Assembly (NCBI RefSeq): GCF_037042905.1
Contig: NC_087250.1
Coordinates: 5,272,001-5,336,000 of the forward strand
Direction: 5' to 3'
Origin: Lytechinus pictus
Lineage: Eukaryota
Length of the DNA: 64,000 nt
Shown here: positions 14,740-58,374 of the stretch, one piece after another
Position numbering within the stretch: the stretch's first letter is position 1
How the letters are laid out: each line of letters starts with the position of its first letter
Position numbers and translations under genes: made by a program
The notes under the pieces: generated by a model
What the model was told of the DNA's origin: nothing
The model's input: the letters and a program-made list of their open reading frames with translations, nothing else
The model's database searches: none

Positions 14740-17332
14740 ACACGACATGGTTCCGCACTCCTGGATCATCGAGTATAATCGGGTAGCAGACATCAGAAGG
14801 CTCCTCATTACAAGTATAACGAGATGGAGAACTAAGTTGGAAAGTGATGGCGAAGTGCTTAGAGAGGTTGCTATTTGTGATGGCAATAACACCATTAGCT
14901 AATGTGCTCAGAACATCCAGGCTAGGATATGAGTTCAAGAGCAAAGCAAAAATCAACCATCTGTTATACATGGACGATTTGAAGCTGTTTGGTAAGACAG
15001 AAATTGATTTAGAGTCTCTCATCAACACAGTGTGGATCTTCAGCGAAGACGTCGGTATGCAGTTTGGGTTGGATAAATGTGCAATGATTACTTAAGCCAG
15101 CCAATGACAACATCTTCCAAATGCCGAACAGAAAAGAGATCAGATCAATCAAAGACGGTGGTAGCTATAAATATCTCGGAATACTATAGGCAGATCAGTT
15201 GAAACATAAAGAAATGGAGAAGAAGATTGAGGCAGAGTATATCAGGCGAATTCTGAAGGTGCTCAAATCCAAACTAAATGCTGGAAACATGAAGAAGGCT
15301 GTTAACACTTGGGCAGTAGCCCTAGTGAGATATGCCGCTGGCATAGTTGAATGGAACAAGCTTGAACTCGAACAAATTACCGAAGAGCCAAAGTTGAAAA
15401 GGAGCACACATCTCCCTCAGGTAGAATGTGTCATGACAAAGACGAAACGGTAACTCATCTGGTGGGTGAATGCAGCAAAATGGCACAGACTGAGTATAAA
15501 GGAAGGCACGACAGAGTAGCAGCTGCAGTTCACTGGGGTCTGGCCAAGAGGTACCATTTATCCCATGCAGAAAAATGGTACGAACATCGGGCAAAGCCTG
15601 TAGTAGAGAACGATGGTGTACAACTCTTACATGTCTTATGGGATTTTAATGTCCGGACAGACAAGATTGTTGAAGCTAGACGACCAGACATCGTTCTCTT
15701 AAGAAGAGGGGAAGGAACGTCTCATCATAGCTTATTATGATCGTCATTATTATTATTCTAATTACAAGCAGAAGCTCTTATTAAAAATGACATCAGCTCC
15801 GATACAAATCCTATTATCTGGTGGTTACTCGCACGCGACCAAAACACTTAATCCCCTGGGTCCTTAAACCATTTGCTTAGGCAGCAATTGTTCAGATAAA
15901 ATCGAAATTAAGCCTATGCTTGATCCGGGTGCCTATTCTTCATGTTAACAATGCAATACATGCTTTGGCCACAACACACACATTTATCATCGTTCGTTAT
16001 TCTTATTATTGCATAATATCCTATTATCTTGCAAAGACAACACCGTTCTTTCATTTTCGGAAATACGAACCTTATTCAATTTTCGGATAAACGAACCTCA
16101 TTTCGTTTTCGGATTAACGAACCATCGGAATTACGAACCTCATTTCGTTTTCAGATTAACGAACCTTATTTGAATTGAAGGCCCCTTTAATACTCATCAT
16201 CTCTACTCACCGACTCAAGCCAGCATCTCCTCATCCATCCTACTACTCAAGCTACTTTTTCAACTCATCAATCTCTTCTGGTTTACAGTCCTTTTCAGGA
16301 CTACATTCAAGAAAGAATACTTTACTCTCAAATCTCCACTTTCTCGCCTATCCAATTCCCTTTTCTTCTTCTACCCACTATATCTACTTCACTCCACATG
16401 GCGTACCGTAAACCACATCAGCGACTGTACATACCACCATGCAAACCTTCAAACAACATCCGAACCTCATTTCGTTTTCGGACTAACGAACCTTCGGAAT
16501 TACGAACCTCATTTCGTTTTCGGATTAACGAAAATTCGGAACTACGAACCTTATTTCGTTTTCGGATTAATGAAACTTCGGAATTACGAACCTTTGGCAA
16601 TACGAACATACGAATTATGAATGTATTTGGCTTCGAGGAGTGGGGGGGGGGGGCTCTGTTGCTGTTCAGTTCTTATGAGGATTTGGAGGCAAAAAGAAAG
16701 CTGGGAGGAGGAGCAAAGTAGAGCAAATGAGAACGAATCCTTTTTAAGTGATTTATGATTATGGTAAAATGTCTATATATGCTTCAATTTTCGCGAGAGA
16801 GTGTTACGAGCGGGCGGTTTTGAAAAAAAACCCTCAAAGTTGAAGTTGTAAAATCTGATTTTGGTTAGTTACTTGTAAATTAATGTTAAAAGGGCATCCT
16901 TGGGAGGTGTTGCGAGCGCGAATCGTAAGCTCAAACTTTTTGACATTTCAATAAGAAATGAAAATAAAACATTCTGAGTAGTTTTTGCTATCATTAAAAA
17001 AATGTGCATCTAACTCAAAAATTAACACGAGCGCGAAGTGCGAGCTGAAATATAATGACCAGAAAAGGAAGGTCTGTAAAGGGCTGCGTTTTTACATCGA
17101 ATAATGCAAGTGCTAAGCGCGAGCCCAAAATATATTCCAGCCTGAAAACTGGAGATTTTAAGCCTTATTATAACCAGAAACGGTGAGTACCTTGCTAAAC
17201 AATAACTGATAACATTAACCCCACCCCACCCCCCAAAACAAAAAAAAAAAAAAAATCATTTTAAAATGTATACTTTCAAAGGGGGTATTTTCATTTAAAA
17301 AAACGTCACATTTCATTTTAGGTGCGTACATA

Positions 17333-40368: not shown

Positions 40369-41683
40369 TGACGTTATTGGCTATTTGTGTGGTGCGGCGG
40401 GTCAATTTGACGCTTCGGTGGTTTCCGGTTTGGTCTCGTTCGGTGTCTGAACTTTGAAATCAGTTCCGACCTTTTGTTTAGTGAGTTTCTGTTTGTTATT
40501 ATGGACACTCTTTCCTCCAGGCAAAGATTGCACAAGCCAGAAAAGAATCAACACCTATAGTGTAGGCCTATACCGCGACGACGGACTAGCGGTACTCCGA
40601 CGAGCATCAGGGAGCAGGGCGGATAGGGCGCGAAAAGACCTCATAAAGGTCTTCAATGATCTCGGCCTACGCATCACCGTCCAAACTAACCAAAAAATCG
40701 TAGATTACTTGGACGTCACCCTCAACCTAGACACAGGCGATTTTCAACCATATAGAAAACCTAATGACACGGTCACCTACGTACATAGGGCATCCAACCA
40801 TCCACCCCCTATCCTCAACCAAATACCTGCGGCCGTTGAGAAGCGCCTCTCGACACTGTCTTCTAACGAAGACCTATTCAAGAAAACAGCGCCAGCATAC
40901 GACGACGCCCTGAAAAGAAGCGGGTATGACAAAACCATCAAATACATCAGACTAGTAGAAGAAGGAAGAAAAAGAAGAAACAGAAGTAGAAAAGTCACCT
41001 GGCTTAACCCACCTTACAATTCTGAAGTAAAAACCAACGTAGGAGGGAGATTCATAAAGCTAATAATGAAACACTTCCCCAAGGGACATAAATTGAACCA
41101 AATATTCAACAAGAACACAATAAAGGTTAGCTACAGTTGCATGAAAAACATGGATACCATAATAAAAACCCACAACCAAAAAGTTGTTAAGCAATCAAAT
41201 CCACGAGCGGAAAATAAGCCAAAATGTAACTGTCGGCAAAAAACCAATGTCCATTACAAGGAAACTGTATGCAGACGGCTCTGGTATACAAGGCGACGAT
41301 CCGACATGGCAACGAAGAGAAACACTACTTCGGGCTTGCAGGGGGGAGACATTCAAAGATAAATACAGAAACCACATCAAATCATTTAAGCATGAAAGAT
41401 ACCGGAACGAAACTCAACTCTCAAAATACATATGGAATTTGAAGGAAAAGAACATCGAATCTACGCTAACATGGGACATCGAAAAAAAGTCAAACTTAAA
41501 CCAAAGAAAAAATGGCTTGTGCAATCTTTGCCTGGAGGAAAAAGTGTCCATAATAACAAACAGAAACTCACTAAACAAAAGGTCGGAACTGATTTCAAAG
41601 TGCAGACACCGAACGAGACCAAACCGGAAACCACCGAAGCGTCAGATTGACCCGCCGCACCACACAAATAGCCAATAACGTCA

Positions 41684-42001: not shown

Positions 42002-43502
42002 TGAAAAATATAAGGAGATACAACATCCAAGTTTGTTTTGCACATCAATGAATTATCACCAAGTTGAATAAATTCCATAATGACAGATTGATGAATGAAC
42101 AAATCAATTGATAAATGAATAATAAATAATTAATTCGATTAAAATAATGATATAAATGGATGAGCCCATGTGTTCACTCTGATTGTTTTCAGAGTTGACT
42201 GAAACACGGGACGATACTAATAAGTCTTGAAGAGAGCGGCATCGTCTAAATGCGAAAAGGGGCGGTTCTGGAAATATTCCATTTGTCACTTCAGATTGGT
42301 GTCTTTCTTCTTATAATGTAAGGGGTTTTCCCGAGGAATTTCTTTAGCCTTGTTGATGGCTTTGCTCACTGAATGAGGATTGTAATTACGTTTCTGGAGA
42401 TGTTCTTGCAGATCTGCGATACTAGATTCACAGTTGGCTTCTTTGGAACAAATGCGCCTTATTCGGATTGTCTGGCTATAAGGAATGCTACTGAAAACAT
42501 GGTGTGGGTGAGATGAATAAGAATGAAGAAGATAAGCATGGGTGTCCGTCGGTTTGGAGTGGAGAGAAGTTTGTAGAATGTTCTCTTTTATGTAAAGTAG
42601 AACATCAAGGAAGGAAACTTGAGAGTTAGACGTTTCAAACGTGAATTTGATTGTTGGATGGAATGAATTGGCAGCTTGGATAAATTGGTCAAGAGACTCC
42701 CTGTTTCCAGACCAGATAAAATTAATATCGTCAATGTATCTACACCAGGATGATCTGTAAGGCTGTTGTGGGACTGAGGAGAGGAATTTCTCTTCTAGGT
42801 CTGCCATAAAGATATTGGCATAAGAGGGTGCAACTGGAGTGCCCACGGCCGTTCCTTGGTTCTGAATGTAGAATTCCCCTGCAAACTGAAAGTTGTTCAA
42901 CTTCAGAATTAGTTCAAGTAATCGAACCATATCACAAGTAGGGGGATCTTTCGATCTCCATTTTTCAAGAGCTTTCTTACAGGCTTGGATACCATCTGCA
43001 TGGGGAATGTTGGTATACAGGGATTTGACGTCGGCTGAGACCAAGAATATCCCATTAGGAATTAGGCCCTCTGAGTTTATTTTGGAGATATGTTTCAGAA
43101 AGTGTGTTGTGTTTTGTATGAAAGACTTAGTATGTTGTACCAATGGATGCAATACTGTGTCGAGAAAGCGAGATATTTGAACAGTAGGGCAAGAACATCC
43201 GGAAACAATTGGTCTTCCTGGATTGCCCAATCAATTTATGTATTTTGGGCAAAAAGTACATTTGTGGGCATTCCGATTTGCTAGGGATTAGTAATTGCTT
43301 GATGTCTTTTCGGACATTTATGTCATTTACTACTTTTTTTTCACTTGATTCAAGTGCTCATTGTTAGGATCACTCTCAGTTTTTCTATATGTCTCCGTGT
43401 TCAATTGTCTATGGCCTTCAGAAAGATAGCTCTGTTTAGATTGAAATACCACTGCTGACCCTTTGTCAGCTCGCTTGATAATAACATTCTTGTTATCTTT
43501 AA

Positions 43503-43997: not shown

Positions 43998-44471
43998 CAC
44001 ACTAACAAATAAAGGTTCAAAATTGAACCCCGAAAGGTTGATACAAAATCAGCACCCTAACCGGGCATGTTGGCTCAATGGTAGAGCGTCCGCCTCATGA
44101 ACGGGAGGTCGTGGGTTCGATCCCCGGCCGAGTCATACCAAAGATTTAAAAAAATGGGACCTTCTGCCTTCTTGCCTGACCCTCAGTATTTAGACTGGAG
44201 AAGTAATAATAACATATTATGTTATGCAGGGCCCGCTGGAAGAGCAGACTTGTGATTGAAGTGGCTACCCTGGGTTAATAAAACGTTATTATTATTATCA
44301 TCATTATTAATATTATTATGGGTTCAAAAATTGAACCCCTAGGGGTGCAGTTTTGAACCCGCAGGGTGCAAAAATTAACCCCAACCGCAGGGTTCAATTT
44401 TTGAACCCATAGGGTGCTGATTTTGCATCAACCTTTCGGGGTTCAATTTTGAACCTTTATTTCTTAGTGTG
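43998..44471. mobile_element. Palindromic MITE with TA TSD (CACACTAA...TTAGTGTG)
   Basis: Long TIRs with GGTTCAAAATTGAACCC subrepeats; contains a SINE. Confidence 0.85.
44061..44318 (+). mobile_element. tRNA-derived SINE (body resembles Meta-type SINEs) with LINE-like 3' tail
   Basis: A box TGGCTCAATGG, B box GGTTCGATCCC, body GTCATACCAAAGA...AAAAATGG, tail GCAGGGCCC...GGCTACCCTGGG then (TTA)n. Confidence 0.88.
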
Positions 44472-45704: not shown

Positions 45705-47064
45705 GGGGAAGGTTCGAGGAAAGTGTGACAAACTTTACCTGTAAAACTCTTTTTTTTTATTCAAATGACAACCCCAGCAAAAAATTGACTTGGATAAGAG
45801 AAAAACCGAAACAGTTTTATGCACATCCAGGTCAGTATGCAAATTAAGGGACTGATGACATTATTCACTCGCCATTTATTTGGGGTTTTATTATAAGAAA
45901 AATGTGAACCATTCAAAATTTACCTGAGAAAATTGTCCGAAACAAAGATTAATTACTCCCTGAAAATGTTGAATTACCAATGCTTTACCATTTCGTGGTT
46001 CAGTCAACTTTGTACATTGTCGAAGCTGTAAAAATGAAATAACAGAACACACAAAAAAGTAAGTGAGGGACATCATCGACTTTCTCATTTACATATTACT
46101 CGGTTGTGCAAAGGCTACAATAACCTTTTTTATGAATATATTAATTCCAATCAACATGTTTCTGAGCTGGACGTGACCTTTAAATATGCAGTGAAAGTAA
46201 TTGGTAATATGGGAAATAGATAAGATTGGAAGGTGTAGCGAATATCAAAGTTCCCCATAAATCATGTATATGGAACTCTGTACTAGTGTCTATAAAATGA
46301 TGCTCGGCTTTTTACTCATTTTAGGTAAACGTTCAATTCATTTTATCAGAATACTTGAAGTAAAATTTTGAGCCAATGTTTCAGTTTACAATGAAGTCTG
46401 TGGTGTACAGATGGGAAGCTTGGGGCGCTCCCACCTCCACCCCCTTCAAACTTTTAAAGACCAAGGAAAAAGAGAAAAAGAGGAAGAGAAGGTAAAATAT
46501 AATATTATTTTCTGAATATTGAATAAAAAATCAACCACAAATTTTGATTTTTGTAATAAGAAAATGTCAAAGTTTTTGCTCGTTCGGTTCACTCGATCGC
46601 AACTTTTTTTTTTATAACGGAACTCCGTATCTGGGCCGTCGTAAATTTTTACCATCGAATTAGTCATCACCATTATCTCCACCATCACCATCATCATCTC
46701 CATGGCCTTTATTTTTAATATTGTTTCCATTATACTAATCCCGATCAGTACCATCTTAATCTGGTGTTGGTCTAGCAGAGAATAAACTACATTAACTCTT
46801 GGGCGTTAATCTTTATTATTCAAATGATTGGATATTACCATTCTGCTTTTTCTCATCATGTTTCAATCTGGGGTTCTTCAAGTAATCTGCTTATAATGAT
46901 AATCCTTCTGTAAATTTTGAAAGTTATAATAATTTGGTAGTTGATCATTTTCTTTCGGAATGATTATTACAGTTTAGGGGGTATGATACATAATTCCTTT
47001 GAAAATGCAAATAAACTCACAATGGACAGCTGAGACTCTTTTGTCGAAAGTTGGTAGACCGGGA

Positions 47065-50000
47065 CGCGAATACCTTTTCCGTACATGGAAACGCTATGGT
47101 ACATGAATTATTCATAAGTTGAGCTAAAAAAACTGAAGTGCGCAGGCGCATGGACTTCGCCGATAGTTCTATAGCTTCATCAATTTGTACATGAACGAAT
47201 GGACGAGCACACTCTTGTACATAAATGAATGGTAATGGTCTCCATCCCAATCTCCCCGCTTTCTGAAGTTTCGAATTCTCTCTTAGCACACTCTCTCTGC
47301 TTTAAGAATCATGAATGAATTGACTAATGAATAATGTTCGCGCACCCCCCCCCCATCTAAATATTTGTTCCTTACTGAACATGTCAGCCAAGTTCCCCCC
47401 CCCCCCTCTCTCTCTCCCCTCTCTCAATTGATTAGGCCTAGAAGTTTTAAAAATACATTGATGCCTATACCTTTGGAAATAAAAAAATAATGTTGAATTT
47501 AAACGTTGATCAGGATTCATGAAGACTTGAAATCGCAAGAGTTTCAAGCTAGTAATTGAGTGATTTATGATTTAGTTAAACTTCCCCCCAACCACGTCAC
47601 ATTTCAATGTCGAATATTCCTTGCAGACACATATAAATCATTGTGTGGGTGTGGGGGGGGGGGTACTTGACCGAGGACACTTAATAGTTATTTTTTTTAC
47701 AAAATCATAGTATACTGTATAACGAGTACATTAAGGGAATGATTGTCCGAATGGTGCTGTATACAGAAATATGTCTACACTCTAAAAATAGTTTGGCAAA
47801 AATTTCCATCTTTTAACCAACCCTGCATGGGCAACATACTGTCTACACAACTATTGGTTAAAATCTGTCCAAATTGGGTAATAAATTTGTTCAGTTGGAT
47901 ATAATAATTGCCCAGAATATATATTTTCTATTACCAAACACAGTGGACAGTATGTTGCCCAACAGTGACATTTTAAGTGTGTATGGTGAGAGAGGAAAGA
48001 CAAAACATGAGCTAGACAGAAGAGACAAAACTGCTAGGGCGTTAACTCAGAACCTATCAGTTAACGAAACTTGATAATCTGTCTTATTTCGTCTATGCCT
48101 GTAGAAATTATGTAATTTGTTGGACCAAAACAGGAATAAAAAACAATCAGAATTTATTCACTTATTTTTTTATTCTTTTAAATATCTTTATACAGGATAA
48201 CAAGCTCAAAATGACTGTTTTTCAGCATGGTCCTGTTAACATGAAATAACAATATATACATGATTTGTATAAATTATTGCAAAACCATCCATTACACAAA
48301 TTTAATGCTTAAGATATTGCATACAAAAATTTCAGAGCTCTCCAATAAATAATGCGAGTGCAAAGCGCTAGCTTAAAAACATCCTGATGTGATAACTTGA
48401 CGTTATTCAAGCAATGCACTTTCTTGTAAATGCAAGCAGGATTCGTATATTTTGCTTAAACAAATAATGAAAACTCGAATCTCTAGAAGAAGAATTTGTG
48501 CAAATCTACTTGAAAACTGGATTTTAAAGTCCCATGTTATCCTATTGAGCGCATTTATTCATCTCAATCGACAGCCACTGCGAGCAAAAAGCGCGAGGAA
48601 ATCTTGAATTTACATAATGACCTGAAAGATTTTTGGGGAGCTAACAGTGGCATGATGACAACATTTCAATATTTGAAGGGTAAAAATGTTGCTTTGGAGC
48701 ACTTTATAGCTTGAGTAGGATGTTTATGATAGCATTCACTTCATTTCTTTCTTCAGTTTTCAAAATTTTATGGGGGAGGGGCAATGATCTTGACTGGGGG
48801 GGGGGGGGGGTGGGCATTTGCCCCCCCCCCCCCCTGATGCCGCCACTGATTGTTGTTCTACTAATAAAGTGGTTGGTTATATCCAAGAGCTATGCCAAAA
48901 TCACCAAAGTTTAACAACAGGGACAGATATAGCCTGCCCTTTCTAAAGGATATACACCTAGTAAGCCTACTTTAAAGAACCAAAACAAAATTAACTTTAA
49001 AACATCCCCCCAAAAAAAATCACATCGGCTTTACAGTGGGTCTATTATGATGGACCTTTTTCATGTTACGCAATATAATAATGTCCAATATATTTTTAAT
49101 CGTAAAAAGTCGCAAGTTCATTATCATTTTGGGGGTAACTATTCAGAAAACTTTTAATTCCTCACTCGGTCTTTGACAAAAAGTAACTTTACACTTTTCA
49201 TCATTTTTAATATCGATATGGTCAGATGATGATTGCAAGCCTTGCCTTTTTTTAAGGATTATTAAATCTTCATGAATTTTATCTGGCAAATAGCTCTGAA
49301 ATTTTTGTATGCAATATCTTAAGCATTCGATTTGTGTAATGGATGGTTTTGCAATAATTTATACACATTATGTATATATTGTTATTTCATGTTAACAGGA
49401 CCATGCTGAAAAAGTCATTTTGAGCTTGTTGTCCTGTATAAAGATATTTAAAAAATAAAAATAAATGAATAAACTCTGATTGTTTTTTATTCTTATTTTG
49501 GTCCAAGAAATTACATAATTTCTACAGGCATAGACGAAATAAGACAGATTATCAAGTTTCATTAACTGATAGGTTCTAAGTTAACGCCCTAGCAATTTTG
49601 TCTCTCCTGTCTAGCTCATGTTTTGTCTTTCCTCTCTCATCATACACACTTAAACTGTTGTGCAACATAATAAACTGTCCACTGTGTTGGGTAATGAAAA
49701 ATATATATTCTGGGCAATTATTATATCCAACTGAACAAATTTATTACCCAATTTGGACAGATTTTAACCAATAGTTGTGTGGACAGTATGTTGCCCATGC
49801 AGGGTTGGTTAAAAGATGGAAATTTTTGCCAAACTATTTTTAGAGTGTAGACATATTTCTGTATACAGCACCATTCGGACAATCATTCCCTTAATGTACT
49901 CGTTTTACAGTATACTATGATTTTGTAAAAAAATAACTATTAAGTGACCTCGGTCAACCCCCCCCCCCACACACACACACAATGATTTATATGTGTCTGC

Positions 50001-50707
50001 AAGGAATATTCGACATTGAAATGTGACGTGGGGGTTGGGGGAAAGTATAACTAAATCATAAATCACTCAATTACTAGCTTGGAGCTCTTGCGATTTCAAG
50101 TCTTCATGAATCCTGATCAACATTTAAATTCAACATTATTTTTCTATTTCCAAAGGTATAGGCATCAATGCATTTCTAAAACTTATAGGCCCATAGGCGG
50201 CGGAGCAGAGGATTATCTTTTGTGTTTGGGGGGGGGGGGGGGACGCAACAATAGCCGCCCCCCCCCCCCCCCAAACACAAAAGATAATCCTCTGCTCCGC
50301 CGCCAATGTATAGGACTAATCAATGGAGAGAGGGGAGAGAGAGAGGGGGGGAACTTGACTGACATGTTCAGTAAGGAACAGAGATTTAGATGGGGGGGGG
50401 GGGGGTGCGCGAACATTATGCGAGTCAATTCATTCATGATTCATAAAGCAGAGAGAGTGTGCTAAGAGAGAGGAAGGGAGAGAGATTGCAAGAGAGAGGG
50501 GAAGAGAGAATCGAAACTTCAGAAAGCGGGGAGATTGGGATGGAGACCATTACAAGAGTGTGCTCGTCCATTCGTTCATGTACAAATTGATGAAGCTATA
50601 TAACTATCGGCGAAGTCCATGCGCCTGCGCACTTCAGTTTTTTAGCTCAACTTATGATGAATAATTCATGTTCTATAGCGTTTCCATGTACGGAAAAAAT
50701 ATTCGCG
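47065..50707. mobile_element. Foldback element 1: inverted arms of about 1.3 kb (47065-48339 / 49291-50707) around a spacer of about 0.95 kb
   Basis: The arms are reverse complements with high identity and are bounded by CGCG on both sides. Confidence 0.9.
50192..50308. mobile_element. Hairpin hAT-like MITE in the right arm only
   Basis: Near-perfect palindrome, TSD TATAGGCC/TATAGGAC, empty site in the left arm at about 47435. Confidence 0.88.
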
Positions 50708-50730
50708 ACCGGTGAGTGCAGCTCGCAGGA

Positions 50731-50917
50731 CGCGAAATTATTTTTCCCACCGAGTTCTGGACCAACATATGAATATTCATGACTTGCGTCTTCGGATTAA
50801 GAGTACGCATGACTTTGCCTCGACCAGTGCCGGTCGTAAGCATTCACGTTCAGTTGCTCAGAATGAATTAGCATCGTCAAATTACCGGTACCATTACATA
50901 GGCCTTATAGGCTTAGA

Positions 50918-50954
<37 letters not shown>

Positions 50955-53900
50955 TATTCTTAAACACTTATCAAACTAGCTGCCATTAATGGCAAGACTT
51001 GTGCTCGGCTAGGGCTAGCTTGGGCTAGCGCATTAACTTTACCTCAAATATGGACCTGTCTAATGCCTGTTAATACAAATAGTAATAGCCGACTAATGCC
51101 ATGGTTAACTTCGAACCGGTAAATTCCGAACTTTACGTTTGCTTTTTATTTACCATGGTTTAATATGTCTAGTCCGTATACAGAACCAGTCCTAGATCTA
51201 AAAAAATATCTTAGTTCTAGTCTAGTCTCTAGATCTAGACTCTGATCTACGCTGGATCAGCATGGAACAATTAGTGTACCAAGGCGGGGGGGGGGGGGGG
51301 GGCAGACTGCCACCTGATGATTTACAATTGATCTAGGGGACGTGCCCCTCCCCTTTAGAAGCCAAATTAATAATTTGTAATGTCAAAATGCAACAAAAAG
51401 AGACTTATGTCCCCTCTTTTGAACGTGAAGATCTTTTCTTTTTTTTGCTTGTCAATTTTTTTTCAGCTAAGAAATCCTTAATTTGGGGTGAAGACGGGGA
51501 TCAAGATCACTGACGTTAGTTTGTGCCTGACGTTAGAATACGTTCCATGCACTGAAGTGGCGTAGCTAGGATTTTTCTTCCTGGGGGGGGGGGGGGGGCA
51601 CTGGGGGGTCCTTGCTTTTTCAGCGGTGGGGGCACCGGCCATTTATTCCGGTGTGTGTGTATGTGTCACAAAAGCGGATCGGACTTTCGCCAATAGGGGA
51701 CGGGCCTGAAATTATCTTCACCTATATTTTCCTCGATCAGTCACTTCTTAGTTTTATTCTTATAAAACAACATAAACATGAAATAATCTCATAAGCCTTA
51801 TAAAAAGTGTGAGCGCGAAGCGCGAGCAATTTCTTTTTAAAAATATTATGGGCAATGGTATGTGTGATCCTGAACAAGATTCGTATGTAACTAGATGGTT
51901 ACTGCAAACGCCAAGCACGAGCAGAAATTTGTATTAACTGTTCTAGCATTATCGAAAAGGGACCTGTTAAGGACAGCTGTGGTATACAGTTACCCACGAA
52001 GGCAGTATATATTTCAATAATGCGATTGCGAAGCGCGAGCAATTTTTGACATTCCGACCTAAAAAAATTATAATTCTAAGCACTTTTTGTATTAATAAAT
52101 GGGATAGGTATGTACCTAAACAATTGATGCGAGCGCGAAGCGCGAGAGGAAGAAAATTGAGATTTTAGACCTAAAAGCAGGACACTCTATTCATTTTTGT
52201 AATCATAAATAGGATATAGTTAATTGGGTATCATTAATAATGCGATCGTGAAGCGTGAGCAGACAATTATTGATATTCTGATGTGAAACTGAATAATTCA
52301 AGTACATTTTAAATAAAGAACATGCAGGCTATCGCGCATGTTTTAGATTTAGACCTAGAATCTGGGCATTCTGAATACATTTGTTTAATGGAACATTATG
52401 GAATACACGTAGAAATTATGAACTTGGCAAATCAAACAATGTGACCACGCAGCGTGAGCTTAAAATGCTGATATGTAGACCATAAAACGGACATTTTACA
52501 GAGCAATTAAATTTGTAAATGAAAAAAAAAATAATGAAAGCTCGAACGAAGTCCGAGCTAAAATATGTTTTGTATATTGACTTCAAAACTTGCTCCATAT
52601 CAGCCTATTAAGCAAGATATGAATCTCATCGAACAGGCAATTCTGGCGCGAAGCGCAAGCAAAAATTTTATATAGTAACATGAAATATTTTTTTTTCAAG
52701 TCTCCCCCTCACATTATTTCATTCACTTAGCTTTTCCTATAGAAAGAGGGGGACAAATTTTGTTCACTCGCTCGCTTCAATCACTTTCTTCTTTTTTTGA
52801 CAGAAATTTTGCTCTATATGCCATGCTTGGCCCCTCAAAGTTTCTTGCTCATCATGCCATTGACATAACCCATTTGGATATGACAAAATTGAAGAATGTG
52901 CTCAAGTTTACCAAATCTTTTCAGAATATCATTAAGACTTAAAACATATTTGTTGGCCAAAGAAAATAATACAAGGAAAATCCTAATGGAATAGAAATCA
53001 ACCTTGTTATCGTTCTTTAGAGTTAGCTATGTTTAAAGTATGAAAATTGTTGTCAAAATTGCAGTCAGATGTCAAATTTATTCTTGTCATCAAAGCACTA
53101 TCATCTTGATCATGATCATTATTATTTACTGTCATTATCATCATTAGTCATGATTACAACACATTACCAATACATAATGCTATTTTTCATAACTGAGGTA
53201 TTCTTTGTTTGAAAATTCTTAATAATGGTGACAATAACAATTGATGACACTGCTAGAACACTTATACTGCTGCTGCTAATGTTACTGGTGACTGGTAGTA
53301 TTGACTATTAGTGTCATTAAATATAAAAAAAACAATTGAAACATTTATAATTACTTATTAAAAAAAAAAGTACAAAATATAAAATGCCTTGAAAAGGCCT
53401 TGAAAATGCCTTGAAAATGCCTTGAATTTTCAAGGCCAATGCTTTGAAAAAGTAGGCCTTAAGGCCGGCTCGGTGTAAAAATGGCAGAGGTAATAATGGC
53501 AGAGGTAAAAATGGCAGAGGTAAAAATGGCAGAGGTAAAAATGGCAGAGGTAAAAATGGCAGATGTAAAAATGGCAGAGGTAATAATGGAAGGGGTAAAA
53601 TGAAAATGGCAGGGGTAATAATGGCAGAGGTAAAAATGACAGAGGTAAATATGGCAGAGGTAAAAATGGCAGAGGTAAAAATGGCAGAGGTAAAATTGGC
53701 AGAGGTAATAATGGCAGAGGTAATATTGGCAGAGGTAAAATGGCAGGGGTTATAATGGGAGAGGTAAAAATGACAGCTCTAGGTAAAATATGGCCAGTCT
53801 TAAACCCCCATGCAATAAATAGCCCCCGCATGTACATACATTAAATAAGAAGTGCATGTCACGGTTAGGCATTTCATCATCATTATGTCTCCATCGGCCT

Positions 53901-55308
53901 AACAATGCTATTTACGAATACGTTGAAAGTGTACCGTGAACACTTTTTAAAAAGAAATCAAACGACAGATATTTTTTCATTCAATTTATCAGGAGCAAAA
54001 TGAAACTGCACTATTCTCATTTATCATTTGATAACATTCCTTTTTGTCTGGCTGGTTTTTTTTATATCTAAAGTTTTGCCAGGTTTACCGATGAAAAATG
54101 AGGAAGAGTAGACATAAGAGAAGTGGGGAGACATAGAGGGTTAGGGGCGGGGAAAAACATAGAGAACATAGCGGGGAAAGCTTAGACGTTGAAATTATCA
54201 CGAATGATTGTGGTTAAATATTATGTCCTTATTTGTAATGTCGTCTGTACTATTCTTTTTAAATAATTGAATGAAAATAAGCATGCGTTCCCAGGCTTGG
54301 CACTGAATATGTAACTGATTATGAAAATCAATAATAATCTTGTTTTGACTGGTAAACCAATTTGGGGTCGATCGAGGGAGACCGTCTGGTTCATATTCTT
54401 TGCATAAAAGAAGACCCTGAAACTTTACCACTGCATCCAATATGATATAAACGCCTTGATGGTCATAACCCTTGAAAGCGGAAGTACTGTTGGGTATTTT
54501 GTTCACCATAAGCAGTACCCTCTTGGTAATTAGCTTGGTATGCTAAAATGTAGATATTTGATATAAATCTCTGTTATTTTTCAAACAGAAGAAAAAACAT
54601 TGTTTATTATCTAATTGTTATTATTTTCATTGGAATTCTTTTTCTGACCTAAAAGAACTTCATTCAGTTTAAATATTTTTTTTGTGTCATTTCCCCCCTT
54701 AACCAAATCCACTTTCACTTTGGAGTGATAACTTTTTTTTCTCGGCTTTTTAACAAACCAGCACCCCATTTTTACTAACTTTTCAAAAGTAAGTGGTGCT
54801 CACTCAAGCGGAAATATTTTTCGACAATTATATCGTCATTTGCTTAAATGGATCTGTACCAATGTTAAAATGTGGAAAAATCTTCAGGATTTTACAAGCG
54901 GGGGCTTTTTGACAATTCATTGCATGGGGGTTTAAGACTGGCCATATTTTACCTAGAGCTGTCATGTTTACCTCTCCCATTATAACCCCTGCCATTTTAC
55001 TTCTGCTATTCTTATTTCTGCCATTATTACCTCTGCTATGTCTACCTCTGCCATTTTCACCTCTGCCATTTTTACCTCTGTCATTATTACCTATGCCATT
55101 TTTACCCCTGCCATTTTTACCTGGCATCTTAAGGCCAAGGCCAAGCATCAAGGCACTACAGCACTGATTAGTACTAGGCATTAGACAGGTCCAGATTTGA
55201 GGTTAAGTTAATGCGCTAGCCTAAGCGAGCACTAGCCTGAAGTGAATAGCCTAGCACATGTCTTGCCATTAATGGCAGCTAGTTTGATAAGTGTTTAAGA
55301 ATTGGATA

Positions 55309-55386
<78 letters not shown>

Positions 55387-55589
55387 TCTAAGCCTGTATA
55401 AAGGCCTATGTAAATATGCAAGGGTACCGGTAATTTGACGATGCTAATTCATTCTGAGCAACTGAACGTGAATGCTTACGACCGGCACTGGTCGAGGCAG
55501 TCCACGCGCATGCGTACTCTTAATCCGAAGACGCAAGTCATGAATATTCATATGTTGGTCCAGAACTCGGTGGGAAAAATAATTTCGCG
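50731..55589. mobile_element. Foldback element 2: inverted arms (about 50731-51070 / 55175-55589), related to element 1, with nested insertions
   Basis: The arms are reverse complements including an internal (TA)n, bounded by CGCG; TIR motifs are shared with element 1. Confidence 0.88.
53467..55128. mobile_element. Second 15-bp minisatellite foldback element with 8-9 bp TSD (C)TTAAGGCC
   Basis: Arms about 53467-53830 / 54900-55128, exact TSD, termini match 32077-33411 in the opposite orientation. Confidence 0.85.
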
Positions 55590-55625
55590 ACCGGCGAAGC
55601 ATCGGACTCTCTTGACTCTGGACAA

Positions 55626-57235
55626 CACTAGCGTAAATCCGTGTTGATGGGTGGGGGGGGGGGATGACTGAAATATTTTGGCATTTTTTTTTGCAATCAT
55701 GTTTTTAGATCATGGGGGTCACCAGCAAAATTTTTGAATCACTGAGTAAGCGCGCTCAGTTGCCAGTTATACTGACCCTAATAGAGACATTTTAAGGACA
55801 ATGTCATTAAACGGATATGTATCTCAATGATCAAATAATGCCAGCGCAAAGCGCGAGCTGATTTTTTTTTATATTCACACCTAAAAAGGGACATTATAAT
55901 CAAATTTGTGTAATCATGATAGGTACCTGTATCGCTAAGTTTTCGTATATTTTGACCCCAAACAGCGAGATTTTAAGAAATATATTTTAGGAATCCATTA
56001 AGAGTATGCACATCTCACCAAAGTCATCTAATGCGAGTGCCAAGCGCTTGCTGATTTTATTAGAATTACATCTGAACACATGAAACACTTTTTGTAGTCA
56101 TTCCAATCATGATTATCGTAAGCATCTCACTAATCAAATATTGCGAGCGCGAAGCGCGAGCTGAAAATTTATATGATTCAGACCTGAAGTGGGGCATTCT
56201 GATGTTTCTTTGTAGGAATTAACTAGGACCATACGTATTTCATAAACCAAATGATGCGAGCGCGAAGCGCGAGCTGAAATTTTTCGATATTCAGATCAGA
56301 AGAAGAGACATTTTAATGACTGATTTTAGGAATTCATGAAGAGCAGACATATCTCACCAATCCACTAATGCGAACGTAATCACGGACAAGAAATGTTTCA
56401 TATATATAAAACTTTCACATTTGGCAATCACTTTTTGAGTTATGAAAAAGAAGAATATGTCACTACATAAAACAATGATAACTCAAGTGCTAGGAAATAT
56501 ATTTGGTTTATATTGACTTGAAAACGGGAAGTTTTAGTACAGGATTATATATCTCGTTAAACAGACAATGCAAGCACCAGGAACAATAAAGACGTAGGCC
56601 CTGGGCAAATTAAGTTTCATAAAGTTATGATAAAAATGTTTCTTATGTAATGTAACATAACATAATTATAATATAATATAACATTATAAAAAAAAAAATT
56701 CCCTTTCCCACTACGTTTCTCTTCCTTTCTCCCCGTTTTTTTTTTGGTCAGACGATTTGGGGGGACATGCCCCCCATCCCCCCCCCCCCGTAGTTACGCA
56801 ACTGTATGTCCATATGGCAAATACCTCTCCAATGTTATTATCTTTTTTACCCCATGATGGTTTAATGGTTTTATTAAAGATTATTTTTAAAATTTTTGAC
56901 ATTCCATCTCAATACCTTCCCAAAGACCCCAACATTGATGAATTGGATGAACGGGGGTTTCTCTTCAATGTTATAATAAGGACATAAGTATATTTCGTTT
57001 GAAAATGGTGAACTGGCTCTTTATTTGCATTTTATGATTCAATAATATTGTTTTATTTGTTAAGCGGTATTTCAGGAAGAATCTTCACCAATAAAACAAT
57101 ATTATCTCTTGTGATTTTTTTCATTTCTTTCGTAAAAAGTGGGGGGATGTTTGTATAGGCCATCCCCCTCCTCGAAAAGTGGGGGGGGGGGGTATATCCC
57201 CCCATCCCCACCCCCCCCCCGGATTTACGCCAGTG
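55626..57235. mobile_element. hAT-like non-autonomous element with 8-bp TSD CTGGACAA, containing a nested GCGCGAAGCGCG-type element
   Basis: TIR CACTAGCGTAAATCCG / CGGATTTACGCCAGTG, exact TSD. Confidence 0.87.
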
Positions 57236-57744
57236 CTGGACAACGACATATTTGCAATTGTTTGTCCGGTGCAAAGTCTTCGGATGATATGCTGTCCCAG
57301 TCCACCAATTTGAAATATACGTGCCCACACACACACACACCTACAAACACACTCTCTCTCTCACACACACACACACCCTCACACACACTCATGCATAAGG
57401 AAAAGAAGTGATATTAATATCCAGAGATATAACGTACAATCACTGTAGAAAACTGGGTGTGTTTGTTTATATCCCATGGTAAAATCCTAAAAGAAAAATA
57501 CTAGATACACCGCGATGAAGTTTGGCATTTCATAAATAACAAAAAAGTCCGGCATACTTCAATTCATTTCTTATCACAGTATTTTTTTTAGTAAATTAAA
57601 AGCATTTTTTTTTTATAGGAGGAAATTATAAGGGGCCACGGGGCCAGGGCAGTCCAACTGGCAATTAACAAAGTTCGTTCTCTCCCCAGATCTGAAGTTC
57701 TCAAACCAAAAAGTGACAAGGAGACTACCGACAGAATACCGCTT

Positions 57745-58374
57745 GTGACCACCTTCCATCCCAATCTACCCCCTCTCCGCAAAATCCTGTGTGATAACCA
57801 CCACATTTTACACACTTCTGATCGTCTCCAACAGGCCGTTCCCGATACCCCCCTTCTAGCATACCGACGCCCATCGAATCTCAGGGACCTCATTGTTCGT
57901 GCTGAAGTGCCCTCCCTCACTAACCATTCTTCTCCCATACAGCATGGCACCTTCAAATGCACCAGCAACAGGTGCATCATATGTGAAATACACTTTCACG
58001 AGGGCGACACTTTCACCAGCAACTCTACCAGCCTGTCTCACCAAATCGAGGGCAACATAACATGCACTACCACTAATGTTGTATATCTCATCACTTGCAG
58101 AGTTTGTAGGGTACAATACATAGGGGAAACCAAGACCACACTCAAGAGACGATTCTACGGGCACAGATCCACCGTCAACACAGCAAAGCTGGACACTCCA
58201 GTTGGCCGCCATTTTAACCTCCCCAACCACTCCATCACTGACATGATGCTACAGGGCATTGAATCTTTAGGTACCCGTCCTGACTCAGTCCGTACTAGCA
58301 GAGAGAAGCTCTGGATGAGACGACTTCGCACCACCCAACCTCATGGCCTGAACATCCAAGAGGGGAACGACTGA
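57745..58374 (+). CDS. PLE ORF C-terminus: Cys-rich linker plus GIY-YIG endonuclease (5'-truncated)
   Basis: AYRRPSNLRD.IV, C...RC..C, NVVYLITC..C..QYIGET...L.RRF..H, V.RHF, RE..W...L.T..P.GLN. Confidence 0.9.
   Translation: MTTFHPNLPPLRKILCDNHHILHTSDRLQQAVPDTPLLAYRRPSNLRDLIVRAEVPSLTNHSSPIQHGTFKCTSNRCIICEIHFHEGDTFTSNSTSLSHQIEGNITCTTTNVVYLITCRVCRVQYIGETKTTLKRRFYGHRSTVNTAKLDTPVGRHFNLPNHSITDMMLQGIESLGTRPDSVRTSREKLWMRRLRTTQPHGLNIQEGND

Follow-up and report, generated by a model that had tools for sequence, protein, structure and literature searches.

The stretch of Lytechinus pictus DNA analyzed here, hereafter the window (64,000 nucleotides; contig NC_087250.1 of assembly GCF_037042905.1, positions 5,272,001 to 5,336,000, forward strand), contains two neighboring foldback elements, each consisting of long terminal inverted repeats (TIRs) around a non-palindromic middle, and each bounded by the same short strings, GGA-CGCG at the left and CGCG-ACCGG at the right. 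In window coordinates, the left junction of element 1 is made up of GGA (47062-47064, plus strand), which would be either the left half of a target or the outermost TIR bases, and CGCG (47065-47068, plus strand), a candidate 4-bp target-site duplication or crossover core. The body of the element follows (47069-50703, 3635 bp), and its right junction, again on the plus strand, reads CGCG (50704-50707) and ACCGG (50708-50712). A plus-strand spacer of 15 bp, TGAGTGCAGCTCGCA (50713-50727), whose final five bases, TCGCA, mirror the GCGA found to the right of element 2, then separates this site from the left junction of element 2, likewise on the plus strand (GGA, 50728-50730; CGCG, 50731-50734), which is followed by the body of element 2 (50735-55585, 4851 bp) and its right junction on the plus strand (CGCG, 55586-55589; ACCGG, 55590-55594). 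A first-pass annotation, made from the letters of this DNA, had reported these junction strings at both elements, and they proved exact when the window was re-read. Its further statement that two copies of a 12-bp motif, 15 bp apart, are occupied at the same position was reproduced by scripted excision: removal in silico of each body together with one CGCG leaves two copies of the 12-mer placed 27 bp apart, with the 15-bp spacer between them.

These strings are peculiar to the element ends. Within the 64 kb, GGACGCG is found twice on the plus strand and not at all on the minus strand, and CGCGACCGG is found twice, in every case at the end of an element; an intact 12-mer is absent from the remainder of the window even when up to 2 mismatches are permitted. 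Considering the base composition of the window, the eight flank bases outside CGCG would be expected to recur by chance with a frequency of ~4e-6, and this value, together with the confinement of the strings to the four element ends, indicates that the junction identity is not a matter of chance. The likeness of the right flanks of the two elements extends further outward, 7 of the first 8 bases being the same, and element 2 occupies a site with near-symmetry over ~20 bp.

The arms of element 1, junctions included, span 47062-48339 and 49292-50710 (~1.28-1.42 kb), and are 81-94% identical in a gapped alignment. Its left arm proper (47069-48339, plus strand) starts with a terminal module composed of TTTTCC (47075-47080), a 13-bp palindrome, ATGAATTATTCAT (47103-47115), and a GC-rich box (47137-47156). 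Five copies of ATGAAT lie within the first 300 nt of this arm, and the motif recurs further along the element 1 arms in the manner expected of sub-terminal binding sites. The loop (48340-49291; 952 bp, no strand assigned) is not palindromic and holds no open reading frame (ORF) of at least 120 amino acids. The right arm (49292-50703, minus strand) contains an extra palindromic insert of ~118 bp at 50193-50310, which is missing from the left arm; this mini-element, with arms of ~35 nt ending in G15 and C15 runs and with a near-perfect 8-bp repeat on its two sides (TATAGGCC / TATAGGAC), is an insertion that took place after the foldback of element 1 had formed. The arms of element 2, again with the junctions, are shorter (50728-51068 and 55176-55592; ~341-417 bp) and enclose an interior of ~4.1 kb. 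In the left arm (50735-51068, plus strand), TTTTCC starts at 50742 and is accompanied by a 12-bp palindrome, ATGAATATTCAT (50769-50780), a (TA)n tract, and a GC-rich box with a small deletion, the box being intact in the right arm (55176-55585, minus strand; box at 55499-55518). The first 30 nt inside CGCG are identical between these two arms at 30 of 30 positions. Within the interior (51069-55175, no strand assigned) lie ~110-bp repeats arrayed at 51800-52670, as well as a nested foldback transposon (53466-55127).

Homopolymer runs aside, the bodies of the two elements are unrelated, a BLAST comparison of one with the other giving 0 matches at E<=1e-3. What they have in common is a co-linear terminal module of ~95 bp. 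When the first 100 bp of the two elements were aligned globally, the score was 18, compared with a maximum of 14 among 3000 random segments of the window, and in each of the four arms ATGAAT, which forms the start of the 12/13-bp palindrome, begins at offset 35 from CGCG. The pattern TTTTCC...ATGAA..TTCAT has four matches in the window, all of them in these arms, against an expectation of 0.02, and the 20-nt GC-rich boxes, at offsets 68 and 67, are identical between the elements at 17 of 20 positions. The earlier description of the TIRs as diverged but related, with the same order of modules, is thus well founded on the alignment score, the shared offset and the pattern count. The junctions agree at all 16 bases, the neighboring 100 bp show no more than a loose resemblance, and the remainder is unrelated. 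A single duplication is unlikely to account for this, because divergence that erased all likeness between the bodies would not have spared all 16 junction bases, and the view that these are separate insertions holds. Elements 1 and 2 are well supported by their sequences as probable separate insertions of related members of one non-autonomous foldback family. The complete junction identity, despite unrelated bodies, further implies that the strings are held by the mechanism itself, either as its target or as the tips of the elements.

The non-autonomous character of the family follows from its coding content, which lacks a recognizable enzyme. Only four ORFs of at least 120 amino acids lie inside the two elements; two of them result from translation of a tandem repeat with a 15-bp unit, and the other two, one of which is in the interior of element 2, have no Pfam domain. 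No recombinase gene was recognized in the elements or in the window, as judged by the ORF list and by Pfam on the tested ORFs. On this point the initial reading of the DNA was borne out.

Copies outside the two elements were sought in several ways. BLAST of both TIRs, which the first-pass annotation had suggested as a check against the genome, was run on the window and found only the partner arms and simple repeats. Twenty-one public sequencing runs were listed, of which the best shares only 0.20 of the sampled words, and the contigs of four of them (X1, X5, X6 and X7) were placed on this very repetitive stretch at 88% likeness. In run X7 (organism B), 55401-55594 is matched by a contig of 236 nt that differs at 5 letters, stops matching exactly after ACCGG and continues for 24 unaligned letters; it represents a third right end with the same CGCG-ACCGG beside different DNA and supports the reading of these bases as a target. 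Another contig, of 399 nt and from run X1 (organism A), agrees with 55401-55588 apart from 18 letters and then continues for 150 unlike letters. With an end of element 2 placed beside unlike DNA in contigs of two other runs, the family of element 2 appears to be dispersed. These contigs argue against wholly random flanks, yet they do not separate a target from a terminus. Other searches brought up no further copy: an 18-mer of the right tip of element 2 had 49 loci among metagenome contigs, the longest 15 alignments being of at most 31 nt and thus chance matches; genome contigs, scanned with a 24-mer taken from element 2 and with a 25-mer taken from element 1, gave 0 matches in either case; a scan of viral contigs had 0 matches; and a protein search with an 86-amino-acid ORF running from the right flank into the arm of element 2 yielded no candidate gene call on another copy.

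How did the two elements come to share their junctions? Whether insertion was target-specific at all, by a DDE transposase or by a tyrosine recombinase, seems to us about an even question, and sequence-specific targeting is plausible but unproven. The particular version that we favor, tentatively and with somewhat less than even confidence, is target-specific insertion by a DDE transposase with duplication of the 4-bp CGCG; we infer here that GGA and ACCGG are host DNA, that the duplication is of 4 bp, and to which class the enzyme belongs. According to this model, elements 1 and 2 would be independent insertions of two diverged members of one non-autonomous class II family with long TIRs. The ~95-bp module, with its TTTTCC box, the palindrome at offset 35 and the GC-rich box at about offset 68, might provide binding sites for an enzyme supplied in trans. 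Integration would then take place at the central CGCG of a short, GC-rich and partly symmetric host site, GGA-CGCG-ACCGG, two copies of which perhaps originally lay 27 bp apart, with GGACGCGACCGG as the presumed uninterrupted empty form, and a 4-bp staggered cut by the DDE-type transposase would leave CGCG duplicated. Both elements show the same left/right asymmetry: the base to the left of CGCG is A, the corresponding base on the right, reverse-complemented, is T, and a full CCGG is present on the right side alone. Since this asymmetry is shared even though the tips of element 2 are otherwise fully identical over the 30 nt mentioned above, a non-palindromic host site would be a simple explanation. 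With CGCG taken as the duplication, there is a perfect 4-bp direct repeat at both elements; 8-bp duplications are absent from elements 1 and 2 and are clearly present at two other insertions in the same stretch. The near-symmetry of the site would be expected if it were read by a dimeric enzyme, and the symmetry thus cuts both ways.

Several considerations weigh against insertion into a host CGCG site. CGCG is palindromic and GGA/ACC is symmetric at 2 of 3 positions, so that all of these bases could belong to the TIRs. The copy in the X1 contig, ~88-90% identical, ends its match inside CGCG and does not keep ACCGG. Empty sites, which the first-pass annotation had suggested looking for in other individuals or species, did not turn up: a paralogous one was not found in the window when the spacer and both flanks were searched by BLAST, and no joint skipping element 1 or element 2 was among the 15 of 919 joints listed, which is not evidence of absence. 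By comparison, 8 contigs, drawn from all four runs, contain a joint from 53465 to 55128, the empty form of the nested foldback, which shows that the contig-joint method is able to detect empty sites among the joints listed. Two sites and one contig are too few for a target logo, the literature searched had no precedent for a CGCG duplication by title or abstract start, and we know of no autonomous copy of these elements and of no enzyme that moves them. The original proposal of a target-specific family therefore stands in part: the elements are separate and related insertions and the end of element 2 appears to be dispersed, and the host origin of GGA and ACCGG is less certain, ACCGG being kept at one of the two informative outside right ends among the contigs listed (the more diverged one is without it) and no empty site having been found.

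Nearly as likely as insertion into a host site by a DDE transposase, though still doubtful when taken by itself, is the possibility that GG(A/T)CGCG, and perhaps CCGG too, are the conserved tips of the TIRs with an inherited A/T asymmetry, so that insertion left no visible duplication. The 15-bp spacing would then mean that a related element landed beside a resident end, either by self-targeting or by a local hop. As inverted repeats, GGACGCG and GGTCGCG (the reverse complement of the right end) agree at 6 of 7 positions, and the palindrome CGCG could be the tip of a TIR just as well as a duplicated target. The symmetry also extends outward, at 5 of 6 positions at element 1 after a 1-nt gap (ACCGG on both sides) and at 6 of 8 positions at element 2 (TCGC/GCGA on the two sides). 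The terminal bases of TIRs are usually the best-conserved part of a family, and the X7 contig ending right after ACCGG fits conserved tips as well as it fits a target. Cut-and-paste elements that make no target-site duplication do exist, Spy being an example (PMC4122938). However, the same mismatch in the same orientation would be needed in both elements although the tips of element 2 are otherwise identical, and the left end of element 2 is without the CC of CCGG. No flanking duplication between 2 and 10 bp long is present under these boundaries, and the match of the X1 contig is lost before ACCGG.

We consider it unlikely that the repeated CGCG is a crossover core rather than a filled-in staggered cut, as it would be in site-specific recombination, in which the elements would be excised as circles, their joined ends forming a long palindrome around CGCG, and a Crypton-like tyrosine recombinase would integrate them by strand exchange within the CGCG of a short dyad-symmetric host site. 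In favor of it, the host site shows partial dyad symmetry and the two sites have at least 12 bp in common; specificity of this degree is seen more often with recombinases than with DDE transposases. Cryptons end in direct repeats of 4 or 6 bp, considered to be the substrates of recombination, and the sites of tyrosine recombinases are inverted repeats around a short core (PMC3212892). That core is usually of 6-8 bp, however, and only CGCG, or CGCGA, is common here; Cryptons are also without TIRs (PMC3212892), as opposed to the 0.3-1.3 kb arms of the present elements, in which, as in the rest of the window, no recombinase gene was recognized. A local rearrangement, in which one true insertion was duplicated in tandem with its flanks and then diverged, or in which the junctions were copied by gene conversion, is suggested by the adjacency of the elements, their common orientation and their identical junctions, and it is nonetheless improbable: bodies without a BLAST match and first 100 bp that are only loosely alike stand against 16 identical junction bases of 16, the spacer and the outer flanks are not duplicates of each other, and one contig already places the end of element 2 at unrelated DNA with the same junction. 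Lastly, long palindromes can arise from chimeric long reads or missed adapters, and the foldbacks might in principle be products of assembly; this we find very hard to credit, since the arms differ by 3-20% with indels, the loops measure 0.95 kb and 4.1 kb, the nested insertions are specific to one arm, and contigs of independent runs cover the arms. Integration at a CGCG-centered host site by a DDE transposase thus remains the reading that we place first, with conserved tips close behind it.

Comparison with known systems locates the elements among foldbacks and sets them apart from each named family. The foldback architecture is found also in the sea-urchin TU elements and in Tc4 of C. elegans. 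In TU elements the outer arm is made up of 15-bp tandem repeats and the insertions carry 8-bp duplications; elements 1 and 2 differ from TU in having neither tandem repeats at the tips nor an 8-bp duplication. Tc4 targets the short palindrome CTNAG, of which TNA is duplicated; as a foldback with a palindromic target it offers the nearest analogy, although both the sequence and the length of the duplication differ from those found here. Like these foldbacks and like FB and Tetris of Drosophila, the elements have arms that range from hundreds of bp to beyond 1 kb, a middle segment that varies, no coding capacity, and a modular make-up that includes other dispersed repeats. Tetris makes 8-10 bp duplications (PMC4079207), which are lacking at elements 1 and 2. 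No 8-bp direct repeat of the hAT-like or TU-like kind is found at any candidate boundary of the two elements.

The cut-and-paste element Spy (PIF/Harbinger-ISL2EU-Spy) is instructive in another respect. Its TIRs range from 10 to 474 bp, its termini are GGANNNNG, and it inserts between AAA and TTT without duplication; these flanks could at first not be assigned to TIR or host, a question that empty sites resolved (PMC4122938). The likeness lies in the invariant short flanks of ambiguous TIR or host status and in the absence of a duplication under one of the readings. The flanks here, however, are GC-rich: if the shared strings are taken as element tips, they become CCG/GGT (element 1) and GCA/GGC (element 2), not AAA/TTT. 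Moreover, neither GGACGCGA, at the left ends, nor GGTCGCGA, at the right ends as reverse complement, fits the Spy termini. The piggyBac and Kolobok elements insert at a fixed 4-bp palindrome, TTAA, which is duplicated, and the resemblance lies in the 4-bp palindrome, which here, as a candidate target duplication, is CGCG and not TTAA; we know of no extended 12-bp target context for either of them. KolobokP has long terminal repeats that are direct (PMC9587614), whereas those of elements 1 and 2 are inverted. With Crypton, the likeness is the 4-bp direct repeat, CGCG, at both ends of both elements. Cryptons are DNA transposons that use a tyrosine recombinase, and they are present in sea urchin. 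They encode this recombinase (PMC3212892). They are thus recombinase-encoding elements without TIRs, while the present elements possess long TIRs and show no tyrosine recombinase domain in the tested ORFs, although such an enzyme might act in trans from another part of the genome. One rule for assignment to a family aligns terminal positions 1-11 with at most 1 mismatch and asks for the same length of duplication (PMC4455052). The present family may already be catalogued in Repbase or Dfam.

The elements and their surroundings are themselves built of other repeats. A segment of ~58 bp at 49740-49797, mirrored in the left arm of element 1, has 71-129 contigs per run ending at both of its sides in X1, X5 and X6; these breaks indicate that the element 1 arms include a short repeat of very high copy number and are thus mosaics of other repeats. 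G or C homopolymers of 10-18 nt are numerous, often at the borders of modules inside the elements (runs at 47340-47410, 48796-48835, 50227-50275, 50391-50405, 51284-51302, 51583-51600 and 55649-55661), and yield false joints in the placement of contigs, for example from 48814 to 51283. The arms of the nested foldback inside element 2 (53466-55127) consist of tandem 15-bp repeats with a unit of about GGCAGAGGTAAAAAT, and the foldback is flanked by a perfect 8-bp duplication, CTTAAGGC (53458-53465 and 55128-55135); with its 15-bp tandem arms and 8-bp duplication, it fits the sea-urchin TU elements. Arrays of the ~110-bp repeat, with a GC-rich core of about GCGAGCGCGAAGCGCGAGC, lie inside element 2, at the position already given, and just outside it at 55806-56380; the repeat is found also at 48345, 11989, 16900-17135 and 18566, and its bins have very high summed depth in the four aligned runs. 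We rejected the proposal that a decayed unit of this repeat makes up the target, alignment scores for 5 units on both strands being within the range of shuffled sequence. Nor was there support for targeting of small nuclear RNA or transfer RNA (tRNA) genes, as in Dada-like elements, Rfam and tRNA scans showing no RNA gene at the target.

Elsewhere the window is rich in retroelement debris. Pieces of Penelope-like retroelements, with an RVT_1 domain and a GIY-YIG domain, are found at 42286-43230 (minus strand), 40451-41678 (plus strand) and 57619-58374 (plus strand). The last of these is a GIY-YIG (Penelope-type) ORF, 94% identical to a protein named for Lytechinus variegatus, with other matches named for Apostichopus and Diadema; these matches by themselves point to a sea urchin, or a near relative of one, as host. 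An Rfam tRNA match at 44064-44135 (plus strand; 37.1 bits, above the gathering score), for which there is no ARAGORN call, is possibly the tRNA-derived head of a short interspersed element or a decayed tRNA gene.

Few eukaryotic cut-and-paste transposons have a target that is both long and fixed, and the enzymes of such transposons are in demand as tools for programmable or safe-harbor integration. There is a small but appreciable chance, we estimate, that echinoids harbor a foldback family that integrates only into a GC-rich, CGCG-centered site of 10-12 bp or longer, by means of an enzyme outside the catalogued eukaryotic cut-and-paste superfamilies or of a site-specific recombinase, of the tyrosine type or another, acting on elements with long TIRs. 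If the halves of the motif are instead the ends of the elements, we would be dealing with another unclassified foldback family in the repeat-rich genome of a sea urchin. If the specificity for the 10-12 bp around CGCG is real, the family would constitute a new target-specific class II lineage, and, as a family specific for a CGCG-centered 12-bp site, it would add a new type of duplication to the classification of transposons.

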